Part shown: positions 2,704 to 39,001 of the stretch, piece after piece | Position numbering within the stretch: the stretch's first letter is position 1 | How the letters are laid out: every line of letters starts with the position of its first letter | Origin: Candidatus Cloacimonadota bacterium | Lineage (GTDB): Bacteria > Cloacimonadota > Cloacimonadia > JGIOTU-2 | NCBI GenBank assembly: GCA_030611765.1 | Contig: JAUWPE010000001.1 | Span: 1 to 54,413, forward strand | Length of the DNA stretch: 54,413 bases | Direction: 5' to 3' | Notes under the pieces: generated by a model | Databases searched by the model: none | The model's input: only the letters and a program-made list of their open reading frames with translations | Told to the model about the DNA's origin: nothing | Translations under genes and position numbers: made by a program

Positions 2704-4916
2704 TATTTTACCTCCAGGGTAAAGATGCCATCCCAATCTTTTGGGGTTTCGTGCTTAAATTTTCTACATCGTTCCAGCATAACACCGGATGCTTTATCAT
2801 TGGTAGGATTTTGAGAAAGTCTTTCAAAAATGTCAATAGCTTTATTCCATTCTGCCTTTTTATAATATGAGAGCGCCTCTTCATAGTCCTTGATCCATGC
2901 ATTGTTCAGGATCGCTTCTTCAGTGTTCTCGTCAATAAGTTCATACACAGAAGTTGGTTCTGTTTTCCCCTTTACACGCAGGCGGTCAAGCTCACGGCAG
3001 AGGAATTGTTTTTTGATCAGGTCATATGTGGATTCGCTTAGCATGATCTGGGTTTTATATATCTTGTTCACTCCCTCGAGCCGTGCTGCAAGGTTCACGT
3101 TATCACCGATCGCAGTGTAGTCCATTCTGCTTTTTGAGCCGATATTTCCTGCAACGATCTGACCGGAGTTCACCCCGATTCTTGTATGAATATGAAAGTT
3201 ATCCGCAGCATCGAATTCCTGCTTTTCCTCTTGTAGTTTCTGGCAGTATTTTCTGTGCTCAAGCGCAGCTCTGCATGCCATTAATGCATGATCATTTTTG
3301 GGAATAGGTGCACCGAAGATCGCCATGATACCATCGCCGGTATATTTGTCGAGAAGTCCGTTATTCTCCAGCACGATACCTGTGATCTTATCAAAATATT
3401 CATTGAGTAATCCCACTAATTCTTTGGGTGTTTTACCTTCCGAAAAGGTCGTGAAGCTGGCAATGTCGGTAAAAAGGACAGTTGCGTTAATGCTGTCTCC
3501 GCCGATCTTTATAGAATCCGGATCAACAAGCAGGGTTTCTATCACATCGGGATGAAGATAGCGAGAGAAGACCTTTTTGATATCCCGTTTGGATCGCCCT
3601 TCCATAATGTAGCTGATCGTGGCGCTGTATCCGTAAGAAAGCACAAAACCGATGAGCGGCATTGAGAGGTTGAGCAGGATCCTGTCTGCTTTCCATAGAA
3701 GTAGTGTGATGCCAACAACATATGCAATAACAAGCAGCATAAGCGGATTTGCGATCTTGGGTTTAAGCCGAATGAAAATAATAAAAGTGATAAAAGCAAC
3801 AAGGATGACATGAAGGAAATTTATCCAGCCGGAAACTATGGTCACAAAATCTTTATTCAGAAAATTGCTTAATGCTGTTGCCCATATCTCCATGCCGGGA
3901 TAGGGGTTAATGAAAGGAGTTGAACGAAGGTCGGAAAGACCTGATGCCGTTGCGCCAAGAATAATATATTTATCTTTGAAAGTTTCGTTCGGAAGCGAAG
4001 GTTCTCCGCCTGTCTGCATGGCAAGAGCTGACTGGAATACTGCAGCAAAGGGATAATATTTGAAAACTCCATCTTTTCCGCCGGGTCCGTACCAGTTAAT
4101 GAAGTATTTGTCATTTTGGGTTACCGGAATAGAGAGCCCATTTGTGATAACGGCATTATTCCGAACAATGATATTTTTTCCTTCCCGTCCCATAAGATAA
4201 CCGCTGTAAGCAATCTGCGGATAATAGTTGTCTTTATAAGAATAAATGAGCGGCACTCTTCGAATGATCCCGTCATCATCGGGACGAATGTTAAGAAATC
4301 CGAGTGATTTTGTGGCTTGCAGAAGCATATCTATGGGTATGATACCGCCTTTGAACTTTTGTGAATAGAGAAGACTTTGCATCTGAGGATCAACAGAGAA
4401 AGATGAAATATCCGGAGTGACATCAGTTTCGTTCATGGTAAATTCGGCGCCGAGAATGACGTTTCCAGCCCGTTTTATAGATCGTGCAAATGCTCCATCA
4501 GTTTCGCTGGCATCTGTTTCAGCCCGGTCAATATCAGGATCATCGAACATCATATCAAAAATGATAACTTTCGCACCAACAGTTTTAAAATAATCGACAG
4601 CAATGCCGTAAAAATTACGAGGCCATTTCCACAAAACACCAAAGTTTTCGAAATAATTTAGACTTGTATTATCAATTGCAACAAGGACTACATTGGAGTC
4701 CGCACGTTCCGGGATAGTAAATTTACGAAAGCGGTAATCAACAGTTTTCCATTCTAATTGTTTTCCAATATCTGTTTCGTGAAAAAGAGAGACCAGAATT
4801 GCAATGATGACTGCAACTATGAGACCTACATACCATCGTTTATATATCTTGCTAAAAAGATGTCCGAAAGTTGATTTTTCTTCAGCGGAATTTTTTTTCA
4901 TAGAAAGACCTTTCAT
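2703..4916 (-). CDS. CHASE2-sensor class III adenylate/guanylate cyclase with C-terminal TPR-like tail
   Basis: N-terminal TM, ~330-aa extracytoplasmic region, then a cluster of TM helices (CHASE2 architecture). Cyclase catalytic core VLFTDIASFTTFSE...YTGDGIMAIFGAP...RIGVNSGQIVAGNIGS...YTAIGDNVNLAARLE. Alternative start at 4901 (MKKNSAEE). Confidence 0.85.
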   Translation of the reverse strand: MKGLSMKKNSAEEKSTFGHLFSKIYKRWYVGLIVAVIIAILVSLFHETDIGKQLEWKTVDYRFRKFTIPERADSNVVLVAIDNTSLNYFENFGVLWKWPRNFYGIAVDYFKTVGAKVIIFDMMFDDPDIDRAETDASETDGAFARSIKRAGNVILGAEFTMNETDVTPDISSFSVDPQMQSLLYSQKFKGGIIPIDMLLQATKSLGFLNIRPDDDGIIRRVPLIYSYKDNYYPQIAYSGYLMGREGKNIIVRNNAVITNGLSIPVTQNDKYFINWYGPGGKDGVFKYYPFAAVFQSALAMQTGGEPSLPNETFKDKYIILGATASGLSDLRSTPFINPYPGMEIWATALSNFLNKDFVTIVSGWINFLHVILVAFITFIIFIRLKPKIANPLMLLVIAYVVGITLLLWKADRILLNLSMPLIGFVLSYGYSATISYIMEGRSKRDIKKVFSRYLHPDVIETLLVDPDSIKIGGDSINATVLFTDIASFTTFSEGKTPKELVGLLNEYFDKITGIVLENNGLLDKYTGDGIMAIFGAPIPKNDHALMACRAALEHRKYCQKLQEEKQEFDAADNFHIHTRIGVNSGQIVAGNIGSKSRMDYTAIGDNVNLAARLEGVNKIYKTQIMLSESTYDLIKKQFLCRELDRLRVKGKTEPTSVYELIDENTEEAILNNAWIKDYEEALSYYKKAEWNKAIDIFERLSQNPTNDKASGVMLERCRKFKHETPKDWDGIFTLEVK

Positions 4917-7484: not shown

Positions 7485-8354
7485 TCATACTTTCCACCGC
7501 CTGTGAAACCAGAACCACTGGTTAGGATATTTTTTTACCCAGTTTTCGAGCTTAGAGGTGAATAGCTGAGTGTATTTTCCCACTTCTTCATCAAGGGATG
7601 TTGTTACTTTTGGATAAATGGGCTTTTCAAACTGCATCACAAAAGTGCCATTATGCAGGCGGTAGCAAACTGCAAAAACTACAGGAACATGATATTTTAA
7701 GGCGATCTTTGCAGTTCCCGGATTGGTGGATGCGGGCATATTGAAGAACTGAGCCCTTACACCGCTTTTTCCTGCGCTCTGATCACCGAGCATTAGTATT
7801 ACTTTATTCTCTTTGGTAGCAGTCACGATACCCCGAAGTGCGATTTTCATGGGAATTAGATGCACAAAGTTTGATTCCCGCAGGTTATTCACAAAGTCAT
7901 CGAAGAAAGGGTTTTTCTGCTTCTTTGCAACAGCATAAACTTTTTTTGTGAGATTCCCAAGAAGCTGCGCAGCCAGTTCCCAATTGCCAAAATGTCCTGT
8001 AAATATAATGCATCCTTTGTTGTGGGAAAGAGCTTCATTCAAATGCTCCAATCCTTTAAATTGTATGAATTGGTCAAAACTTTCAAGACGTTTCGGAGAA
8101 AACCAGCAGAATTCTACAGCTACATATCCAAATGAGATATTTATCTCTCGAATCAGCTCATAAATTTCCTTTTCAGATTTTGTCGGATATGCTTCTTTCA
8201 ATTGTCTTTTCACGACAGCACATCGCACTTTTACTATACGAAAGTTAAGCAGACCAAGCGTTCGACCAATACGTCGTGCGGCGGGAAGTGAAAACAGGTT
8301 TATTATTTTGAATAGAATCCGGAAGAGCAATGTCTCGATGTAATAATTGAACAT
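7485..8354 (-). CDS. lipid A biosynthesis (Kdo)2-lipid IVA acyltransferase family protein (LpxL/LpxM-like)
   Basis: 289 aa with N-terminal membrane anchor. Acyltransferase HX4(D/E) box in FTGHFGNWE. Length and layout typical of the HtrB/MsbB family. Start overlaps the comEB stop (TAATG, 8352-8356). Confidence 0.75.
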   Translation of the reverse strand: MFNYYIETLLFRILFKIINLFSLPAARRIGRTLGLLNFRIVKVRCAVVKRQLKEAYPTKSEKEIYELIREINISFGYVAVEFCWFSPKRLESFDQFIQFKGLEHLNEALSHNKGCIIFTGHFGNWELAAQLLGNLTKKVYAVAKKQKNPFFDDFVNNLRESNFVHLIPMKIALRGIVTATKENKVILMLGDQSAGKSGVRAQFFNMPASTNPGTAKIALKYHVPVVFAVCYRLHNGTFVMQFEKPIYPKVTTSLDEEVGKYTQLFTSKLENWVKKYPNQWFWFHRRWKV

Positions 8355-8836
8355 TAAAATATTTTTTTTAGGTGACTTTTTGCGTTCATATTCATGAGAA
8401 TGACATTCACGTCAGCATCTGCGAACATGCTTTCTGCGAGTTTGTCCGGATAGGAATCGGCGATGTACACATTTTTTATTTCTGCATTGACGATTATTTT
8501 TGCACAGATCGAACAAGGTTGACATGTGCAATACATGGTTCCGCCTTTTACCGATACACCGTTAACCGCAGCTTGAATGATCGCATTCTGTTCTGCATGA
8601 ACGCCACGGCACAATTCATGACGTTCACCGGCAGGCACTTTCATTTTTGTTCTCAGGCATCCAACATCCTCGCAGTGGGGAACCCCTTTCGGCGCACCGT
8701 TATATCCGGTAGAAAGTATCTGATTTTCACGCACTATTATTGCACCAACTTTTCTTCGAAGGCAGGTAGAACGTGATGCAACGAGTTCTGCAATTTTCAT
8801 AAAATATTCATTCCATAATGGTCTGGCATTCTTCAT
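8354..8836 (-). CDS. comEB: dCMP deaminase (ComEB family)
   Basis: Cytidine/deoxycytidylate deaminase zinc motifs HAEQNAI and PCSICA (CxxC); 160 aa. Confidence 0.85.
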   Translation of the reverse strand: MKNARPLWNEYFMKIAELVASRSTCLRRKVGAIIVRENQILSTGYNGAPKGVPHCEDVGCLRTKMKVPAGERHELCRGVHAEQNAIIQAAVNGVSVKGGTMYCTCQPCSICAKIIVNAEIKNVYIADSYPDKLAESMFADADVNVILMNMNAKSHLKKIF

Positions 8837-9355
8837 TTTACTCCTTGGGAATATTTAGCCACGAAATCACACGAAAATTCACAAAAAATATAATATATTA
8901 GCAAACCAACTTTAATATTGGTTGCATTAAGATAATTAATGATTTGGGCTTGATGACTAAGATTTAATTTTTCTTCTGCTTTTAGTTCCCATATAATTTT
9001 CTTCTCAATAAGAATATCGGCAAAATATTCGCCAACCTTTTTACATTTATAATATACTACTATTGGATATTCCTTTTCAGCTTGAAAACCGTTGTTAATT
9101 AATTCAATAATTAAAGCATTTTGATTCACCCTGTTAAGTAACTCTATTAGATTTATATTGAAATTTATTCTTCCATTCATGTCATATAAAAATCCAATAC
9201 ACTTTGTTTGTATTATACTTAACAGGGTAAACTTTTTCTAAAAACCCATATCCTAATTCATTCCATACGGTGAAGGCACATTCTATAATTTTATAACATT
9301 CTTCTTTGAATAGAATATTTCTTTTCGTGTGATTTTGTGTGGTTTTGTGGCTCAT
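8833..9355 (-). pseudogene. GxxExxY protein (PD-(D/E)XK family) split by a 97-bp insertion
   Basis: The N-terminal 57-codon ORF (9182..9355, below the track cutoff) reads MSHKTTQNHTKRNILFKEECYKIIECAFTVWNELGYGFLEKVY... with the GxxExxY motif. The C-terminal ORF 8833..9180 carries ...VNQNALIIELINNGF..VGEYFADILIEKKIIWELKAEE..AQIINYLNATNIKVGLLI in a different frame. Confidence 0.75.
9130..9226. mobile_element. 97-bp MITE-like insertion with perfect terminal inverted repeats CCTGTTAAGTA / TACTTAACAGG
   Basis: The TIR extends to 13 bp (ACCCTGTTAAGTA at 9128-9140, TACTTAACAGGGT at 9216-9228). AT-rich interior. Removing exactly 9130-9226 joins ...EKVY to VNQNAL... in frame, giving one 141-aa ORF. 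Confidence 0.55.
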
Positions 9356-10356
9356 TTTATATCATTTCTTTTAATAATGTCTACTATCTTTTCAAAAATC
9401 TCTTCAGGTTTTATATCCATCATACATTTGAAATGAGCTTTCGGACATTTACCTCTTCCATGTAAACTGCAGGGACGGCAGGGCAGGTCCTTTTGAATAA
9501 TAACTGCATTTGTATTGATTGGCGAAAAACCAAGTTTCGGATGTGTCGGTCCAAAAATCGCTATCTGCGGTATGCCAAAGGCAGCAGCAATATGCATTGG
9601 TCCACAGTCTCCACTGATGAAAAGGTCTGAATGTTTGATGATCACAGCTGATTCTGTCAAAGTTGTCCTGCCTCCGAGATTGAGAATTTCGGTTTCAGAT
9701 ACAGCAGCAAGTTCCGTTGTCAAATTTTTCTCTTGCGTAGTTCCGATAAGCACAATTCTGACATCGTAATGATCCAAAAGATGCCGAATTATCTTTTTAT
9801 AATACTCGGTAGGATATTGCTTTGTATGCCATGAAGCGCCTGGGGAGATAGTCACGATTCGTGTTTTATCAGCAGGCAAAAAGGAAGCTACGATATCATG
9901 CTCATTATCAGGAAGAAATAACTCAAGTTTCCTTTCATCAAGTGAAAGGTCGAAATCCTCCAGCACTGAAGCGTAAAGATCCACAGTAGAAAAAATCGGT
10001 TTCAGGTCATGATCTTTCAGCATTTTTTTTCTATAGTTATGCTTTTTTTTATAAGTAATAACTTTCCCCCGCACAAAGCGCTTGATCAGAGCAGAGCGTA
10101 ATTTATCATGCAAATCTATGATGTGAGTATAGTGCTCCTTTTGCAGGCGGGTTATAAGCAGAAGCATCGATTCATTTTCGGAATCAAAGCTGATGATAGT
10201 ATCAATAAACGGATTATATTCCAGAAGAGTAGAAAACTGTTTTTTTGTGAGAAAGTGGATTTCAGCATCCGGGAAATGTGTACGAAAAGCACGAATAATC
10301 GGAGTGGTGAGCAGCACATCTCCGAGAGAACTGAACCGTATAAAAAGCACTTTCAT
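9352..10356 (-). CDS. glycosyltransferase family 9 protein (LPS heptosyltransferase-like)
   Basis: 334 aa. N-terminal MKVLFIRFSSLGDVLLTTP and C-terminal GDCGPMHIAAAFGIP are hallmarks of the RfaF/RfaC-type GT9 fold. Confidence 0.8.
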   Translation of the reverse strand: MKVLFIRFSSLGDVLLTTPIIRAFRTHFPDAEIHFLTKKQFSTLLEYNPFIDTIISFDSENESMLLLITRLQKEHYTHIIDLHDKLRSALIKRFVRGKVITYKKKHNYRKKMLKDHDLKPIFSTVDLYASVLEDFDLSLDERKLELFLPDNEHDIVASFLPADKTRIVTISPGASWHTKQYPTEYYKKIIRHLLDHYDVRIVLIGTTQEKNLTTELAAVSETEILNLGGRTTLTESAVIIKHSDLFISGDCGPMHIAAAFGIPQIAIFGPTHPKLGFSPINTNAVIIQKDLPCRPCSLHGRGKCPKAHFKCMMDIKPEEIFEKIVDIIKRNDIK

Positions 10357-10624
10357 AGAGAAAAGTTTAATGTGTACACCACAACTCCTGTCAATCTTTG
10401 CAAATGGAAAATCTTTTCAGGCATACCCCCAAAATTTAGACACCCGTTTTATGCAGAGCCCATTAATAAAGGGATAGCATGATATTTTTGGTGGAAAATT
10501 ACTACTTAATTTCGTTGCGGAAATCTTTCAATAAAACAAAAAAAGCAATGTCATCTTCCGCCAGCTGGCGGAGGACAAGCTTTCACGGGAATGACATTCC
10601 CTTTTTTGGTTGGAAGATTTTTTT

Positions 10625-10934
10625 AACACGAGTCGGTCGTGAAGGGAACGACTCGGGTTGTACTGAATGTTGAATATCGATTAACGAATGATGATCTTAG
10701 AAGGAGATCGTGCACAGACTTGCTTCGTGGCGAAGCATGAAGCGAGGATGTGCATCCGTCCTCGAATCACACTTTTAACCCGTTTACCCTGTGTAATCTC
10801 TTATATCTTTTATTACACATGGGTGAAATCTGTTTTTTATTTATCCTGTGAAATCGCATCTTTATATATTTCACTGGGATTTCACAGGGTCGCTTTGCTC
10901 GCTGCGATTCAAGTCTAAAAGAATTATCTTGTCA
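10625..10934 (+). repeat. ~310-bp composite repeat, copy A (inverted partner at 20456-20767)
   Basis: By-eye alignment with the reverse complement of 20456-20767 gives 6 substitutions and 1 single-base indel over ~310 bp. Confidence 0.9.
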
Positions 10935-11073
10935 CAAGCTTGTCAGGGCGTATCCTAATTTATTTGTCCCGCCTGCCCTGTGAAATAAATCTTCGATTTT
11001 CCATTAAGGGATTTAACAGGGTGAACTGGGATCAGGTGAAGACCGATCTCAGAGCTTGTGATAAGTAATTCGT

Positions 11074-11193
11074 ATGCTTTTGCATCCGCCAGCTGGCGGA
11101 TGCACTCCAAAAAGGATCTCTAAATTAAAAACATTGTCACTCTGAGCATACCTGAAGCACGGAGTGCAAGGGTATAGTCGAAGAGTCTATTTT
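11074..11193 (+). repeat. ~120-bp composite repeat, copy A (inverted partner at 20181-20299)
   Basis: Contains the 22-bp perfect palindrome GCATCCGCCAGCTGGCGGATGC (11082-11103) and the TGTCACTCTGAGC...GTCGAAGAGTCTAT module. Two mismatches versus the partner. Confidence 0.9.
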
Positions 11194-11450
11194 TTATAAA
11201 CAGCACTACATAATTATCTTGTCACAAGCCGCAGAGCTTTGTGATAAGTAATTTCCATGTATTCTTTTCAACTTAAGACATGCTCTTCGACTCACCTTCA
11301 TAATACTTCCGCTTTTGCTGCGCTACAGCGTGATAAAACGGCGCAGCAGGCATGTCTCAAGTCTATATTTGCTTTATCTCAGCAAAAATTATTGTCACAC
11401 TGAGGTACTTGAAGTGTGAATAATGATAAGATAATCAAGATCAATACGAA

Positions 11451-20050: not shown

Positions 20051-20180
20051 ATTATACCTTGCGAATGGTTAAATTCAGGAAACCTTCTCTAAAGCTCAGC
20101 GATGAAGAGCGAAGAGAGAGGAGAGATAAAAGAACAAGGGGTAGAGACGGGTTTATCCCGTCGGTAATAATAAACACAGC

Positions 20181-20299
20181 AAATAGACTCTTCGACTATA
20201 CCTTTGCACTCCGTGCTTCAGGTATGCTCAGAGTGACAATGTTTATAATTTAGAGATCCTTTTTGGAGTGCATCCGCCAGCTGGCGGATGCAAAAGCAT
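20181..20299 (-). repeat. ~120-bp composite repeat, copy B
   Basis: Reverse complement matches 11074-11193 with 2 mismatches. Palindrome GCATCCGCCAGCTGGCGGATGC at 20270-20291. Confidence 0.9.
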
Positions 20300-20455
20300 T
20301 GAGCACATAAACCGAAAGAGTTCTCCACTCCAAATAAAAAAGGGCATGTCATTCCCGTGAAAACGGGAATCCAGAATAATAATAAATCTTTGTCGGAGAG
20401 CATGTCTTAAGTTGGAAGGTGCATACGAATTACTTATTACAAGCTCTTCGATTTA

Positions 20456-20767
20456 TGACAAGATAATTCTTATAGACTTGAATCGCAGCGAGCAAAGCGA
20501 CCCTGTGAAATCCCAATGAAATATATAAAGATGCGATTTCACAGGATAAATAAAAAACAGATTTCACCCATGTGTAATAAAAGATATAAGAGATTACACA
20601 GGGTAAACGGGTTAAAAGTGTGATTCGAGGACTGGATGCACATCCTCGCTTCATACTTCGCCACGAAGCAAGTCTGTGCACGATATCCTTCTAAGATCAA
20701 CATTCGTTAATCGATATTCAACATTTAGTACAACCCGAGTCGTTCCCTTCACGACCGACTCGTGTTT
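20456..20767 (-). repeat. ~310-bp composite repeat, copy B
   Basis: Reverse complement matches 10625-10934 (6 substitutions, 1 indel). Confidence 0.9.
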
Positions 20768-20773
20768 AAGATT

Positions 20774-26867: not shown

Positions 26868-26911
26868 GCCCTGTGTAATTGCTTTGCACCACTTCGTGGA
26901 TTACACAGGGC
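26868..26911. repeat. 12-bp-stem hairpin of the CCCTGTnnAAT family
   Basis: GCCCTGTGTAAT (26868-26879) / ATTACACAGGGC (26900-26911) is perfect, with a 20-nt loop. Related arms occur at 9128, 10787, 10843 and 10975. Confidence 0.8.
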
Positions 26912-37030: not shown

Positions 37031-37495
37031 ATGAAAAGAATGTTAATCGTTATTACGGTATTAATGCTGATCGTTGGGTGTACTAAAGAACCCATGAACT
37101 TTGAAAAACTACAAGAAAGAGATGGATTAATGTATGAAGTAAACTCTACTAAACCATATTCAGGCAAAGCAATTTCGTTATATGAAAATGGACAAAAGAA
37201 GGGTGAAGGAACTTTAAAGGATGGAAAAAGGGAAGGTTTGTTTGTATCTTGGTACGAAAATGGGCAGAAGTCACAAGAAGGAACTTTCAAGGATGGAAAA
37301 AGGGAAGGTTTGTTTGTATATTGGCACGAAAATGGGCAGAAGTCACAAGAAGAAACTTTCAAGGATGGAAAAAGGGAAGGTTTGTTTGTATATTGGTACG
37401 AGAATGGTAAGAAGAAGTCTGAAGGCACTTTCATAGATGGAACCCCTCAACCAGATTGGAAATATTGGTATAAGAGTGGAAATAGGAAGAATTAA
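37031..37495 (+). CDS. MORN-repeat-variant lipoprotein (YwqK-like)
   Basis: Start moved to MKRMLIVITVLMLIVGC (lipobox) after AGGGAG. Repeated GKREGLFV(S/Y)W(Y/H)ENGQKSQEGTFKD units typical of the YwqK/MORN-variant family. Confidence 0.75.
   Translation: MKRMLIVITVLMLIVGCTKEPMNFEKLQERDGLMYEVNSTKPYSGKAISLYENGQKKGEGTLKDGKREGLFVSWYENGQKSQEGTFKDGKREGLFVYWHENGQKSQEETFKDGKREGLFVYWYENGKKKSEGTFIDGTPQPDWKYWYKSGNRKN
37219..37434 (+). repeat. three tandem 72-bp (24-codon) coding repeats
   Basis: Units begin at 37219, 37291 and 37363 (GGATGGAAAAAGGGAAGGTTTGTTTGTAT...). The first two differ at only 3 positions. Confidence 0.9.
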
Positions 37496-37652
37496 GAGAC
37501 TTGCAATAATTTAATTGATTAGCTTAAAATATATTAAAATTGCATTTATTTTTTTGATTTATTGAAGTAAGAAGATAATGATCAAACCATTATTAGCAGA
37601 AGAATATTGAAATTAATTTTTTAAAATATGTAGATAATACTATGTGCTAATA

Positions 37653-37719
37653 TTTCCCTCTATCAAATATCGACGGTGGACAGAATTCCTCGATCCTCTC
37701 AATTATCCTATCTGCCTGC
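37653..37719 (-). other. displaced duplicate of the deoxynucleoside kinase 3' end
   Basis: Aligns with 38361-38427. Reads QADRIIERIEEFCPPSIFDRGKY* versus gene QAERIIQKIEEFCPPSIFDRGK*: 7 substitutions (4 synonymous, 3 conservative) and one in-frame extra codon. Confidence 0.75.
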
Positions 37720-37735
37720 TTAAAACTTGAGACAT

Positions 37736-38265
37736 GTCGAAGAGCATGTCTTAAGTTGTACTGCGCCTGCGAATCACTTATCACAAGCTCTTCGACTTGT
37801 GACAAAATAATTCATTTTTTGGAGTGCATCGAGCGTCTCGATGCAAAAGAATTCCCCAACCAGAGCCGGCGGAGTCGGCAGCTCCAAATTAAAAAATTGT
37901 CACTCTGAGCTTGCGAAGAGTCTATTCTTTAGGAGCACTGTGTCATAATAAAAATAGTGCTGCGTGTTTTCAGTAAATAGATTCTTCTCCGCCAGCCGGC
38001 GGATGATGGCGAGTCGTAGAGCATGTCTTAAGTTGTATATATTTACGAATTACTTATAACAAGCTCTTCGACTTGTGACAAGATAATTCTTTTTTTGGAG
38101 TGCATCGAGCTCTTATATGTGGGGAAATCTCATATTTAAGCCGACAGAGTCAGCTACTCCAAATTAAAAAATTGTCACTCTGAGCTTGCGAAGAGTCTAT
38201 TCTTTAGGGGCACTGTGTCATAATAAAAATAGTGCTGCGTGTTTTCAGTAAATAGATTCTTCTCC
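37736..38265 (+). repeat. tandem duplication (~276-bp period) of a hairpin-module array (locus C)
   Basis: Unit 1 runs from 37736 and unit 2 from 38013. A ~115-bp stretch (CTCCAAATTAAAAAATTGTCACTCTGAGCTTGCGAAGAGTCTATTC...AATAGATTCTTCTCC) is near-identical, while the central segment has diverged. Confidence 0.85.
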
Positions 38266-38312
38266 CGATGAATCGTGATCAGAATGACAAGGTTCTTTTC
38301 GTAAAGTCTATG

Positions 38313-38349
38313 TTAGAAAACTTTGCGAAACCCCACAGCTTTCGCAAAG
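38313..38349 (-). terminator. rho-independent terminator of the era-dNK operon
   Basis: Perfect 10-bp stem CTTTGCGAAA (38321-38330) / TTTCGCAAAG (38340-38349), followed on the minus strand by TTTTCT. Confidence 0.7.
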
Positions 38350-38356
38350 ATAATTT

Positions 38357-39001
38357 CTACTTTCCTCTATCAAATATCGACGGTGGGCAGAATTCCTCGA
38401 TCTTCTGAATAATCCTTTCTGCCTGTGCTTCAATCTCTTTTTCGGTACAATTATTTGTATTTATCTCAAGAACCTGCGTCATTTTTCGTGCACGAGGGAT
38501 CCAATTATCATATGCATCATTAAGCTGCTGAAGGTAACTCTTCGGAATGCTCTTTTCGCTTTCTCTTCCACGCTGCTGAATACGCTCAATAAGCTCGTTC
38601 ACATCTGCCCAAAGATACACGATCAAGTCCGGATCCTGTAAATAATACGTCATATTTTTGAAAAGATCCTGATAATTCTCAAAATCACGTTCGGTCATAG
38701 AGCCATTCTTGTAGAGGGTTCGCGCAAAAATTTCCGCATCTTCATAAATGGTTCTGTCCTGGATGCATGAGATATTGTTCTCAACGATCTTTTTCTGCAT
38801 CTCGAAACGCTTGGAAAGAAAGTACACCTGCAGATGAAAGCTCCACCTGCTCATATCCGTATAAAAGTCATCGAGATATGGATTTGTGATAACCGGCTCG
38901 TAGTACGCTTCCCACTCCAGCTTTTCGCTGATGAGCCGGGTCATAGTGGTTTTGCCCACGCCGATATTTCCTGCAATCGCAATAAAATAATGGTCTTCCA
39001 T
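38357..39001 (-). CDS. deoxynucleoside kinase (dAK/dGK family)
   Basis: P-loop IAIAGNIGVGKTT. DRT and ERIQQRGRE (arginine-rich LID) motifs. Start placed at MEDHYF (39001), which overlaps the era stop (TAATG), rather than the track start 39046 inside era. Confidence 0.85.
   Translation of the reverse strand: MEDHYFIAIAGNIGVGKTTMTRLISEKLEWEAYYEPVITNPYLDDFYTDMSRWSFHLQVYFLSKRFEMQKKIVENNISCIQDRTIYEDAEIFARTLYKNGSMTERDFENYQDLFKNMTYYLQDPDLIVYLWADVNELIERIQQRGRESEKSIPKSYLQQLNDAYDNWIPRARKMTQVLEINTNNCTEKEIEAQAERIIQKIEEFCPPSIFDRGK

Follow-up and report, generated by a model that had tools for sequence, protein, structure and literature searches.

We analysed a 54,413-nt stretch of DNA from a Candidatus Cloacimonadota bacterium (contig JAUWPE010000001.1, positions 1 to 54,413; hereafter the window), in which a gene of the GxxExxY (PDDEXK_3) family is split by a short, hairpin-forming segment. 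This segment is very probably a 103-nt insertion of mobile DNA belonging to a family of ~293-297-bp inverted-repeat elements, which carry a UPF0213-type GIY-YIG nuclease consisting of the catalytic domain only. The clade whose members end in CCCTGTTAAGTA shows a strong association with a single position, namely the codon for the invariant Tyr of the GxxExxY motif; as judged from alignments of empty and filled sites, the family is shown to land beside TT(T/C)A without duplicating its target, and to bring a 4-nt tail with it. Because no nuclease gene lies inside it, the window copy would be a miniature relative of these elements, resembling the MITEs (miniature transposable elements with inverted repeats) and mobile only when the nuclease is supplied in trans.

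The inserted unit occupies positions 9125..9227 on the minus strand and consists of a 99-nt hairpin core, which is bounded by CCCTGTTAAGTA and TACTTAACAGGG and holds no open reading frame (ORF), followed by the 4-nt tail; its boundary is ambiguous by one A, such that 9228..9126 is equally possible. The size of 103 nt follows from two alleles in which the site is empty and which fix the boundaries. The first allele was found in loci L003-L005, whose contigs encode the closest homologue of the repaired protein and share with the window the gene order GT9 (heptosyltransferase-like), GxxExxY, dCMP deaminase and lipid A acyltransferase; here the GxxExxY gene is uninterrupted (136 aa), with exactly 103 nt fewer than the window. 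When the DNA was aligned, the empty site read GAAAAAATATA/TCAAAATGC and the window read GAAAAAGTTTA, then the 103 nt, then TCAAAATGC, in surroundings that are 97-100% identical. In the second pair, the filled loci L001/L002 read GGTTTA, 103 nt, CAGAAATG, as against GGTTTACAGAAATG in the empty locus L006, which is intact and comes from the same sample (the C-fragment of L001/L002 is protein P0013). The insertion point lies after a TTTA that ends in the invariant Tyr codon, and the empty duplex target in GxxExxY genes reads ...GGNCCNGGNYTNYTNGARNNNGTNTA/TGAR.... The empty sites show a net gain of the core plus TGAA only, and the window flanks (TTTA and TGAA) form no direct repeat; target-site duplication, for which the earlier note had advised a check, is thus absent from the comparison of empty and filled sites.

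Excision of the 103 nt rebuilds ...GFLEKVY/QNALIIEL.... When the repaired protein was used as a query, 379 homologues were found; the closest intact ones read ...GYGFLEK(V/I)Y-(Q/R)NALIIEL..., with no 'VN', and the Tyr is directly followed by x-N-A-L in 117 of 117 intact homologues. Both the two empty alleles and these homologues correct the size of 97 bp given for the element in the earlier note. Deletion of 97 nt (9226..9130) does restore the frame, as had been claimed, but it is not a precise removal, since it leaves behind GTGAAT (Val-Asn), which is absent from all 117. None of these intact homologues carries an equivalent segment, and the arms are not unique to this locus; they recur in 145 short copies elsewhere which, together with the near-identical empty sites, support the proposal that hairpins of this family insert at new sites. 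An identical insertion was seen in L026 (Cloacimonetes bacterium SCGC AAA252-N17) and L073 (a metagenome contig), both assembled independently from close relatives that are ~95% identical to the window regionally; it is therefore not an assembly artefact. From these alignments, near-identical alleles have recently come to differ in whether they carry the hairpin.

The left terminal inverted repeat, CCCTGTTAAGTA in gene sense, lies at 9216..9227, and the Tyr codon TAC (9229-9227) takes its last base from the first C of this repeat; the right repeat, TACTTAACAGGG, lies at 9129..9140 and in full-length elements holds the nuclease stop codon TAA. The tail TGAA (9125..9128) arrived with the element and is missing at empty sites; it is also found in L001, L020 and L047, while other copies have TAAA or CAGG. 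All of these features are on the minus strand, as is the AT-rich interior of 75 nt (9141..9215), which holds the stop codon of the upstream host fragment (TGA 9184-9182) and the ATG of the downstream one (9180). The perfect 13-bp inverted repeat that the earlier note had described was confirmed, with arms at 9228-9216 / 9140-9128; moreover, the tail pairs (with one T.G position) with the target TTTA at 9231-9228, which extends the repeat to a 16-bp stem (9231-9216 / 9140-9125). When folded, as had also been advised, the whole segment forms one long hairpin (RNA -32.9 kcal/mol, z -6.1, 0 of 200 shuffles; DNA z -4.0), in an AT-rich region that has many short inverted repeats (13 pairs within 800 nt). 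The left arm is identical in the 145 short copies and in every sampled full-length copy. The window interior is 89% identical to that of L001, and both align weakly to the interiors of L110/L132, better in the same orientation than reversed.

The full-length form of the element was recognised in L085 and L089, in which alignment with L047 delimited a 293-nt element with the same ends and an intact ORF at the window's Tyr codon (site A). The encoded protein matches PF01541 GIY-YIG (E 1.7e-15) over profile positions 1-74 of 78, a complete catalytic domain; among solved structures, it is closest to BH0048 (1ZG2) and EF2693 (1YWL), both 'hypothetical UPF0213' proteins. L047 is an orthologue of L085/L089 that carries only a hairpin at a second position (site B) and is empty at site A, so that empty alleles comprise L003-5, L006 and L047. 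In L085 (1185-1870) and L089 (320-880), a single GxxExxY gene contains two nested invaders: the Tyr codon holds the full-length GIY-YIG element, and site B is occupied by a hairpin of 98 nt. In complete members of ~293-297 bp, the 12-bp repeats CCCTGTTAAGTA and TACTTAACAGGG tightly surround one ~89-aa GIY-YIG gene, which begins ~7 nt past the left repeat and ends with the TAA inside the right repeat (ACT TAA CAGGG).

A search for GIY-YIG homologues returned 759 stand-alone proteins of 84-92 aa, four of which (P0124, P0125, P0136, P0144) were traced on 23 contigs. A PDDEXK_3 C-fragment follows the GIY-YIG gene in nearly all of the traced loci, and many also have a ~42-aa N-fragment before it; the exceptions are loci in which the contig end was reached first or an IS110 element intervenes. 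In one of these (L158, 1770-3270), the place of the host C-fragment is taken by a transposase gene of the IS110 family, which adjoins the GIY-YIG element at its right end, with the junction just after ...CAGGGCAG. Of the loci read at the DNA level, 14 of 14 have the junctions GAR TTT TA/CCCTGTTAAGTA...ACTTAACAGGG/CA(G/A)G(T/C), after which the host codons resume. The full-length copies are distributed over six GxxExxY host lineages, at the same codon (GTN TA/Y GAR) and all co-oriented with the host. Identity between the GIY-YIG proteins of different loci stays at 66-76% for hosts of 33% and of 84% identity alike, from which it follows that the element moves between GxxExxY genes and does not co-diverge with them. 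In these comparisons, the relatedness of the elements is thus shown to be decoupled from that of their host genes. The same figures counter a single ancient insertion ancestral to all GxxExxY-hosted copies. When larger elements were sought as arm pairs separated by 0.3-6 kb, only adjacent hairpins and GIY-YIG elements were returned.

Short, ORF-less copies were collected by two scans. The pattern CCCTGTTAAGT-N60-90-ACTTAACAGGG, applied to one representative genome per species, found 31 loci, in deltaproteobacterial, Syntrophaceae and Thermodesulfobacteriota metagenome-assembled genomes (MAGs; up to 8 copies per MAG), two Cloacimonadota, one Moranbacteria (Patescibacteria) and one Anaerolineales (Chloroflexota); a metagenome scan, in which TGAA was added to the arm pattern, found 107 stretches. 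The short copies total 145 (120 distinct), are ~85-100 nt long and have identical 11-nt arms. Scans of viral contigs gave no matches, and Rfam returned no family match in either the gathering or the permissive search, only noise.

Where a host gene could be recognised, nearly all short copies lie in GxxExxY genes. Those at site A comprise the window lineage, L001, L020/L080/L087, L110, L132 and L134; those at site B (...ELKSVEKVQDVY/KKQLLTYL..., i.e. ...VQDVY/KKQLL) comprise L047, L085 and L089. At least six host lineages carry a short copy at the GxxExxY Tyr codon. When the core plus 4 nt was removed after TT(T/C)A, one long family ORF resulted in every GxxExxY case. The inserts in these genes measure 99-107 nt and their frame is unconstrained; among the short copies, only L027, L047 and L134 happen to be in frame. 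Non-mosaic copies always lie 3' of TT(T/C)A. The canonical V-Y-E is encoded by GTT TA/T GAA and contains TTTA/TGAA, the flank pair around most non-mosaic copies, which may be what makes the GxxExxY motif a suitable target. A simple test for ORFs across the repaired junctions proved misleading, as reading frames in low-complexity flanks remain open by chance. The sole gene match outside the GxxExxY family is a Dus-like gene of a Moranbacteria MAG (L027), which has two short copies (1061-1130 and 1721-1803); one of them (83 + 4 nt) is in frame and translated as 29 extra residues.

Most short copies form one subfamily of deltaproteobacterial/Syntrophales type, which is intergenic and forms part of a composite repeat of ~270 nt whose outer inverted repeats are of low complexity. 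In the MAG PEUO01 (L007, L014, L016, L023, L029, L032, L035, L036), the copies consist of an outer low-complexity stem (AAATCCGAAAT...), the CCCTG hairpin and a second hairpin. By eye, the interiors show apparent paired changes between subfamilies (ATGAC/GTCAT vs ACGAT/ATCGY). The RNA consensus structure of 100 of these copies comprises the closing stem only, and no empty sites turned up within the composite repeat.

Two further clades of GIY-YIG elements, whose nucleases are more distant homologues, are built in the same way but have ends of their own. Elements of the form CCCCGTTAGATA...TATCTAACGGGG have the flanks TTTA/TTCA..TAAA; in representatives (L168, L172/L173), the neighbours are hsdR and hsdM of a type I restriction system in one setting and a RhuM-like and a GmrSD-like gene in another, at gaps of only 2-12 nt. 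Elements of the form CCCTGTGAAATA...TATTTCACAGGG have the flanks CCTG..CAAG and lie inside genes for four-helix-bundle proteins (PF05635, 23S_rRNA_IVP), at ...ANIA/EG..., which held for all loci of three proteins on 17 contigs. In L170 and L174-L188, they split the PF05635 genes into fragments of 58-73 aa and 63-80 aa. There are thus three arm variants, each paired with its own GIY-YIG clade.

The window copy likely descends from a full-length element by internal deletion, to judge from 12-bp ends that are identical, a shared codon and orientation, and a chain of interior similarity that runs via L110. L110 can be aligned with full-length elements at both of their ends, with a long gap between, and, when its interior was compared with those ends, gave a z of 3.0, the only copy to reach this value. 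In the window copy, the triplets GTG TAT TGG ATT TTT ATA (9202-9185) resemble the nuclease start ATG TAT TAC GTA TAT GTT, and the interior may retain pieces of the 5' and 3' ends of a GIY-YIG gene, although shuffling lends no support to this in the window copy (z 1.3).

Two modes of movement can be envisaged. In a homing-like process, the nuclease would cut the empty site and repair would copy the element in, which would account for there being one site and one orientation, and for junctions that are strangely constant; the junctions that encode E-F-Y (3 nt short) and those with TTCA look like co-converted flanks of a donor. In a transposition-like process, the cut would be structure-specific and made at the base of the stem, in the hairpin or cruciform into which the repeats fold. 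Dependence on a hairpin would explain why the 12-bp repeats are invariant across phyla, why repeat variants are clade-specific and why ORF-less copies are found in unrelated targets, namely site B, the Dus-like gene and intergenic sites. We favour a nuclease-driven process that requires the repeats.

Several observations weigh against this interpretation. That the GIY-YIG nuclease drives mobility we infer from linkage only; its ~85-92-aa protein is the catalytic domain by itself, without a DNA-binding module, and we know of no strand-transfer activity for a GIY-YIG domain of ~85 aa. The 54-kb window contains no GIY-YIG gene of the family, and each Cloacimonadota representative genome has only one copy with exact arms. 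In a shuffle test, the similarity of the window interior to the ends of full-length elements was not significant (z 1.3, 59/500). The junctions fit no single rule: the hosts of full-length copies, all six of them, lack 3 nt and read E-F-Y, the left flank is TTCA in L110, L132 and L134, where the invariant Tyr becomes His, and the tail is variable (TGAA, TAAA, CAGG). Finally, the copies of deltaproteobacterial/Syntrophales type may have been carried along as passengers and not have spread independently, because their flanks are conserved over the ~270-nt composite repeat.

Of the alternatives, the one that survives best is nevertheless unlikely: a hairpin of the ordinary MITE or REPIN kind that depends for its movement on a conventional transposase from another locus (DDE, IS200/IS605-type, or the Y1 enzyme of a tyrosine transposase associated with repetitive extragenic palindromes, REPs, known as RAYT), with the GIY-YIG gene as cargo. 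Small size, lack of an ORF, terminal inverted repeats and a hairpin fold all suit such an element, and REPINs are ~100-nt hairpins that excise (PMC3337134). The absence of target-site duplication, however, argues against DDE enzymes. Insertion beside a fixed tetranucleotide without duplication is IS200/IS605-like, and copies in mosaic intergenic repeat zones recall REPs and bacterial interspersed mosaic elements; yet the arms are not palindromic REPs and have no GTAG/CGTC tag, and they form a single hairpin in place of two distinct subterminal ones. Furthermore, GIY-YIG is the only gene between the repeats in every full-length copy, where it fills the element, and the pairing of an arm variant with its own GIY-YIG clade, seen three times, is the pattern typical of an element with its own enzyme. 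No transposase, and no RAYT, was present among the ten ORFs beside the repeat zones of the window.

We consider it still less likely that host function is kept, either through removal at the RNA level, in the manner of an intron whose stem joins the two halves, or as 'genes in pieces'. Both host halves are intact at L001, L110, L134, L020, L047, L145, L155, L156 and L159, although recent invasion would explain this equally well, because GIY-YIG relatedness is decoupled from host relatedness. Ratios of nonsynonymous to synonymous change (dN/dS) between interrupted copies are far below 1 (L110 vs L134, pS 0.82 and pN 0.24; L047 vs L085, dN/dS 0.11); decay is nonetheless visible in several hosts, including L085, L089, L132 and the window gene, which has lost ~43 nt near its 3' end. 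The element is always co-oriented with its host, and start codons of C-fragments overlap or adjoin the upstream stop (L155, GTG TTG ATA CTT AAC...; in the window, ATG 9180 after TGA 9184-9182). Against this, insert lengths of 99-107 nt obey no frame constraint, and removal leaves His in place of the invariant Tyr in three lineages and a motif one residue short in all full-length hosts. Rfam gave no intron or ribozyme match, and to our knowledge bacteria have no machinery for splicing defined by a hairpin. For the window gene, retained function is unlikely because of the additional ~43-nt deletion; for other loci, RNA-level removal or a split gene is a minor rival. A chance inverted repeat, an assembly artefact or a native segment specific to the lineage, which an AT-rich region with common short inverted repeats might suggest, is already refuted by the 13-bp perfect repeat with its fold z of -6.1, by the identical insertion in the independent L026 and L073, and by a segment that is absent from 117 intact homologues and two empty alleles while its arms recur 145 times elsewhere.

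A number of known identities were also considered for the window copy and rejected. As a REPIN or REP-RAYT sequence, it has an arm (CCCTGTTAAGTA) with no internal palindrome beyond TTAA and no GTAG/CGTC tag. As a palindromic element derived from IS200/IS605, it has the expected type of insertion site, but the terminal repeats close a single hairpin and distinct subterminal hairpins are lacking. The boxes GTTAAGT and ACTTAAC of an integron attC site are present, in an order opposite to 5'-RYYYAAC ... GTTRRRY-3'. Ends that begin with CCCT and flanks of 4 nt recall TTAA chemistry of the piggyBac type, but there is no direct duplication and empty sites have no TTAA. The spacing of the arms is wrong for a Xer/dif-like arm (TGTTAAxT), and 103 nt shifts the frame, unlike an in-frame palindromic element of the Rickettsia type.

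The interrupted host gene lies on the minus strand, downstream of the GT9 gene (9352..10356, minus) and upstream of the dCMP deaminase gene (8354..8836, minus). Its 5' part (9228..9355) runs to the TA of the invariant Tyr codon, and its 3' part (8833..9124) restarts with T-CAA AAT GCT, corresponding to (Y)QNAL, and ends in ~20 aberrant codons. The two ORFs in different frames reported by the earlier note were indeed found: a 57-aa N-part (9355..9182), ending GYGFLEKVY-PVKYNTNKVYWIFI and a stop, and a 115-aa C-part (9180..8833), each of which matches PF13366 in a profile search. The fused protein scores above the curated cut-offs for both PF13366 (E 1.7e-32, 112.6 bits, cut-off 22) and TIGR04256 'GxxExxY protein' (E 1.3e-31, 109.4 bits, cut-off 35), and it includes the motif GYGFLEKVY. 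An uninterrupted ORF with the conserved C-terminus (...GLLINFG..C..KR..) is, however, not found in the window gene. Alignment with L003/L005/L001/L006 revealed a ~43-nt deletion (junction at 8888..8897, minus strand), between CTAATA repeats of the intact allele, through which the conserved C-terminus NFGKEKCDFKRLIF and the stop codon were lost and the frame reads into the intergenic spacer; the restored protein would consequently not be a normal one, whereas the earlier note had expected a protein of normal family length. The deletion is common to the window, L026 and L073, and other alleles do not have it. With both the 103-nt insertion and this deletion, the window gene is, by its sequence, a pseudogene. 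The locus is a decaying remnant, as the host gene has also lost its 3' end, and the window hairpin is best read as a dead relic, an ORF-less relative of the GIY-YIG element.

The block from 8790 to 9570 (minus strand), which comprises the last ~200 nt of the GT9 gene, the whole GxxExxY cassette and the first ~45 nt of the dCMP deaminase gene, is 83-100% identical to L003/L005, and mostly 97-100%. Outside it, compared with L003, the rest of the GT9 gene is 50-60% and the deaminase gene 65-78% identical; the GT9 protein is 58% identical overall and ~90% over its last ~100 aa. Because near-identity is confined to this block within divergent genes, the comparison points to a recent exchange of the cassette and its immediate flanks between otherwise divergent Cloacimonadota.

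The GxxExxY gene cassette itself looks inserted. It is bounded by a low-complexity inverted repeat, GCCACAAAACCACACAAAATCACACG and its complement, with a left arm at 9322..9349, which encodes MSHKTTQNHTK and is also present in L003, and a right arm at 8860..8886, in the spacer before the dCMP deaminase gene. TAAAATGA is found on both sides (9355-9362 and 8833-8840) and creates ATGA stop/start overlaps with both neighbours; every cassette seen begins TAAAATGAGCCAC, and removal of the GCCAC...GTGGC unit would leave a normal junction of stop, spacer, ribosome-binding site and start. L003 (~3085-3105), P0008 and P0012 have a patch 9 nt longer than window positions 9258-9271 (AFIPMYREK vs AFTVWK), which forms a small palindrome, CCCGAT-GT-ATCGGG, at the same spot in several sub-lineages; this patch may represent another small insertion, or a hot spot for footprints.

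Several other hairpins lie in the window. On the plus strand, CCCTGTGTAAT...ATTACACATGGG (10787-10822, flanks TTTA..TGAA) and CCTGTGAAAT...ATTTCACAGGG (10844-10889) have an inverted copy at 20501-20603; CCCTGTGAAATA...ATTTAACAGGG (10976-11021, plus, flanks CCTG..TGAA) has arms that match those of the full-length L170/L174/L183; and CCCTGTGTAATT...ATTACACAGGG lies at 26869-26910 (plus, flanks TCCG..CAAG). The sequence CCCTGTNNAA occurs 9 times in the window, against 1.1 expected. Arms of the CCCTGTGAAATA type match the hairpins at 10844-10889, 10976-11021 and 20501-20603, and the repertoire of 4-nt flanks is the same, which supports grouping the window hairpins, as the earlier note had done, into one superfamily. 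The earlier note had assigned the arms of the split gene to a CCCTGT...ACAGGG hairpin family; the hairpins it listed exist and have these ends and 4-nt flanks (TTTA..TGAA, CCTG..TGAA, TCCG..CAAG) in common, which makes the connection reasonable.

Hairpins of the CCCTGTG type lie in two mosaic intergenic zones (10580-11310 and 20180-20770), which are inverted with respect to each other, 96-98% identical and ~9.5 kb apart, with their middle modules swapped; a third zone (37600-38430) has modules in common with them. Those ORFs beside the repeat zones that matched a family are of housekeeping type (UPF0047, Fur, ClpX-like AAA, dNK). At 37184-37442, three tandem ~72-nt repeats lie within an ORF that matches MORN-repeat.

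Taken beyond the window, these observations raise the possibility, to which we assign a little less than an even chance, of an unrecognised class of minimal mobile elements of ~300 bp, with 12-15-bp repeats and a UPF0213/COG2827-type GIY-YIG nuclease as the sole mobility function that they encode. Their clades would each be tuned to one codon in a family of small, multi-copy, nuclease-like cassette genes (CCCTGTTAAGTA to GxxExxY, CCCTGTGAAATA to the four-helix-bundle 23S rRNA intervening-sequence protein), miniature derivatives would reach high copy numbers across several phyla, and the nuclease would probably act on the repeat hairpin or cruciform, on the empty target, or on both. No description of such an element was found in the searchable literature, although many papers in subscription journals lie outside that coverage and an earlier description is possible; the family of GIY-YIG inverted-repeat elements, which place one nuclease gene within another, is widespread and apparently undescribed. 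There is a substantial chance that it will prove to be a new minimal mobile-element class once the chemistry is known.

If this is true, many small genes annotated as 'GIY-YIG nuclease family protein' are selfish elements, and many REP-like CCCTGT...ACAGGG hairpins are relics of such elements; the finding that the same ends bracket a GIY-YIG gene elsewhere changes what kind of element the window hairpin is. One testable system would join the GxxExxY and four-helix-bundle cassettes, which are abundant and whose role is unknown, the UPF0213 GIY-YIG proteins, whose structures 1ZG2 and 1YWL were deposited only as hypothetical proteins, and the unexplained REP-like hairpins that uncultured phyla commonly have. 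If truly mobile, a nuclease-only element of ~300 bp would rank among the smallest autonomous mobile elements known and, as something intermediate between transposons and homing endonuclease genes, would put the GIY-YIG fold to a new use. In practical terms, insertions of this kind split genes and create spurious small ORFs, and so affect annotation and pseudogene calls in MAGs.

The element resembles several known systems in part. Like a MITE, it is ~100 nt long in its short form, with terminal repeats, no ORF, a hairpin, many copies in some genomes, and ends shared with a longer, gene-carrying element. The window copy is accordingly short and ORF-less (99-nt core) with 12-13-bp perfect repeats, but it lacks a target-site duplication, and the longer partner encodes a GIY-YIG nuclease in place of a recognised transposase. 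With REP/REPIN sequences and RAYT (PMC3337134) it shares ~100-nt hairpins, mosaic intergenic arrays, absence of duplication, and gain and loss at a precise site; in contrast to them, its arms are not palindromic and carry no GTAG/CGTC tag, the window copy is intragenic, and the linked gene is GIY-YIG and not Y1 HUH. IS200/IS605 elements likewise insert 3' of a fixed tetranucleotide (here TTYA) without duplication, bring their own terminal sequence at the other end and leave seamless empty sites; they have, however, two distinct subterminal hairpins, no terminal inverted repeat, and a Y1 transposase with or without TnpB, neither of which was seen here. 'Genes in pieces' (PMC2677866) also have an endonuclease gene between separately translatable host halves, but here there are no split inteins, and the host is itself a small, multi-copy nuclease cassette.

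Comparison with the GIY-YIG homing endonuclease genes (I-TevI, T4 Seg) gave the most likenesses in working. In both, a nuclease is the sole cargo, the site is precise and lies in a conserved motif, and the element is co-oriented with its host; in both there is presence/absence polymorphism, there are ORF-less remnants, as a homing cycle predicts, and the phylogeny is decoupled from that of the host. The window copy sits at one defined site of a conserved gene of which relatives have empty alleles, and its full-length relatives have the GIY-YIG domain that it lacks itself. The differences are that the present element encodes ~85-92 aa with a catalytic domain only, and that it lies inside a coding sequence, which it breaks, and not in a self-splicing intron, an intein or an intergenic region. 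Homing endonuclease genes have neither conserved 12-bp terminal repeats nor abundant miniatures at non-homologous sites, both of which are found here, and the hosts of the present element, at identities down to 33%, are too divergent for ordinary homology-driven homing. By analogy, nevertheless, the element appears most like a free-standing GIY-YIG homing endonuclease gene in the way it would work.

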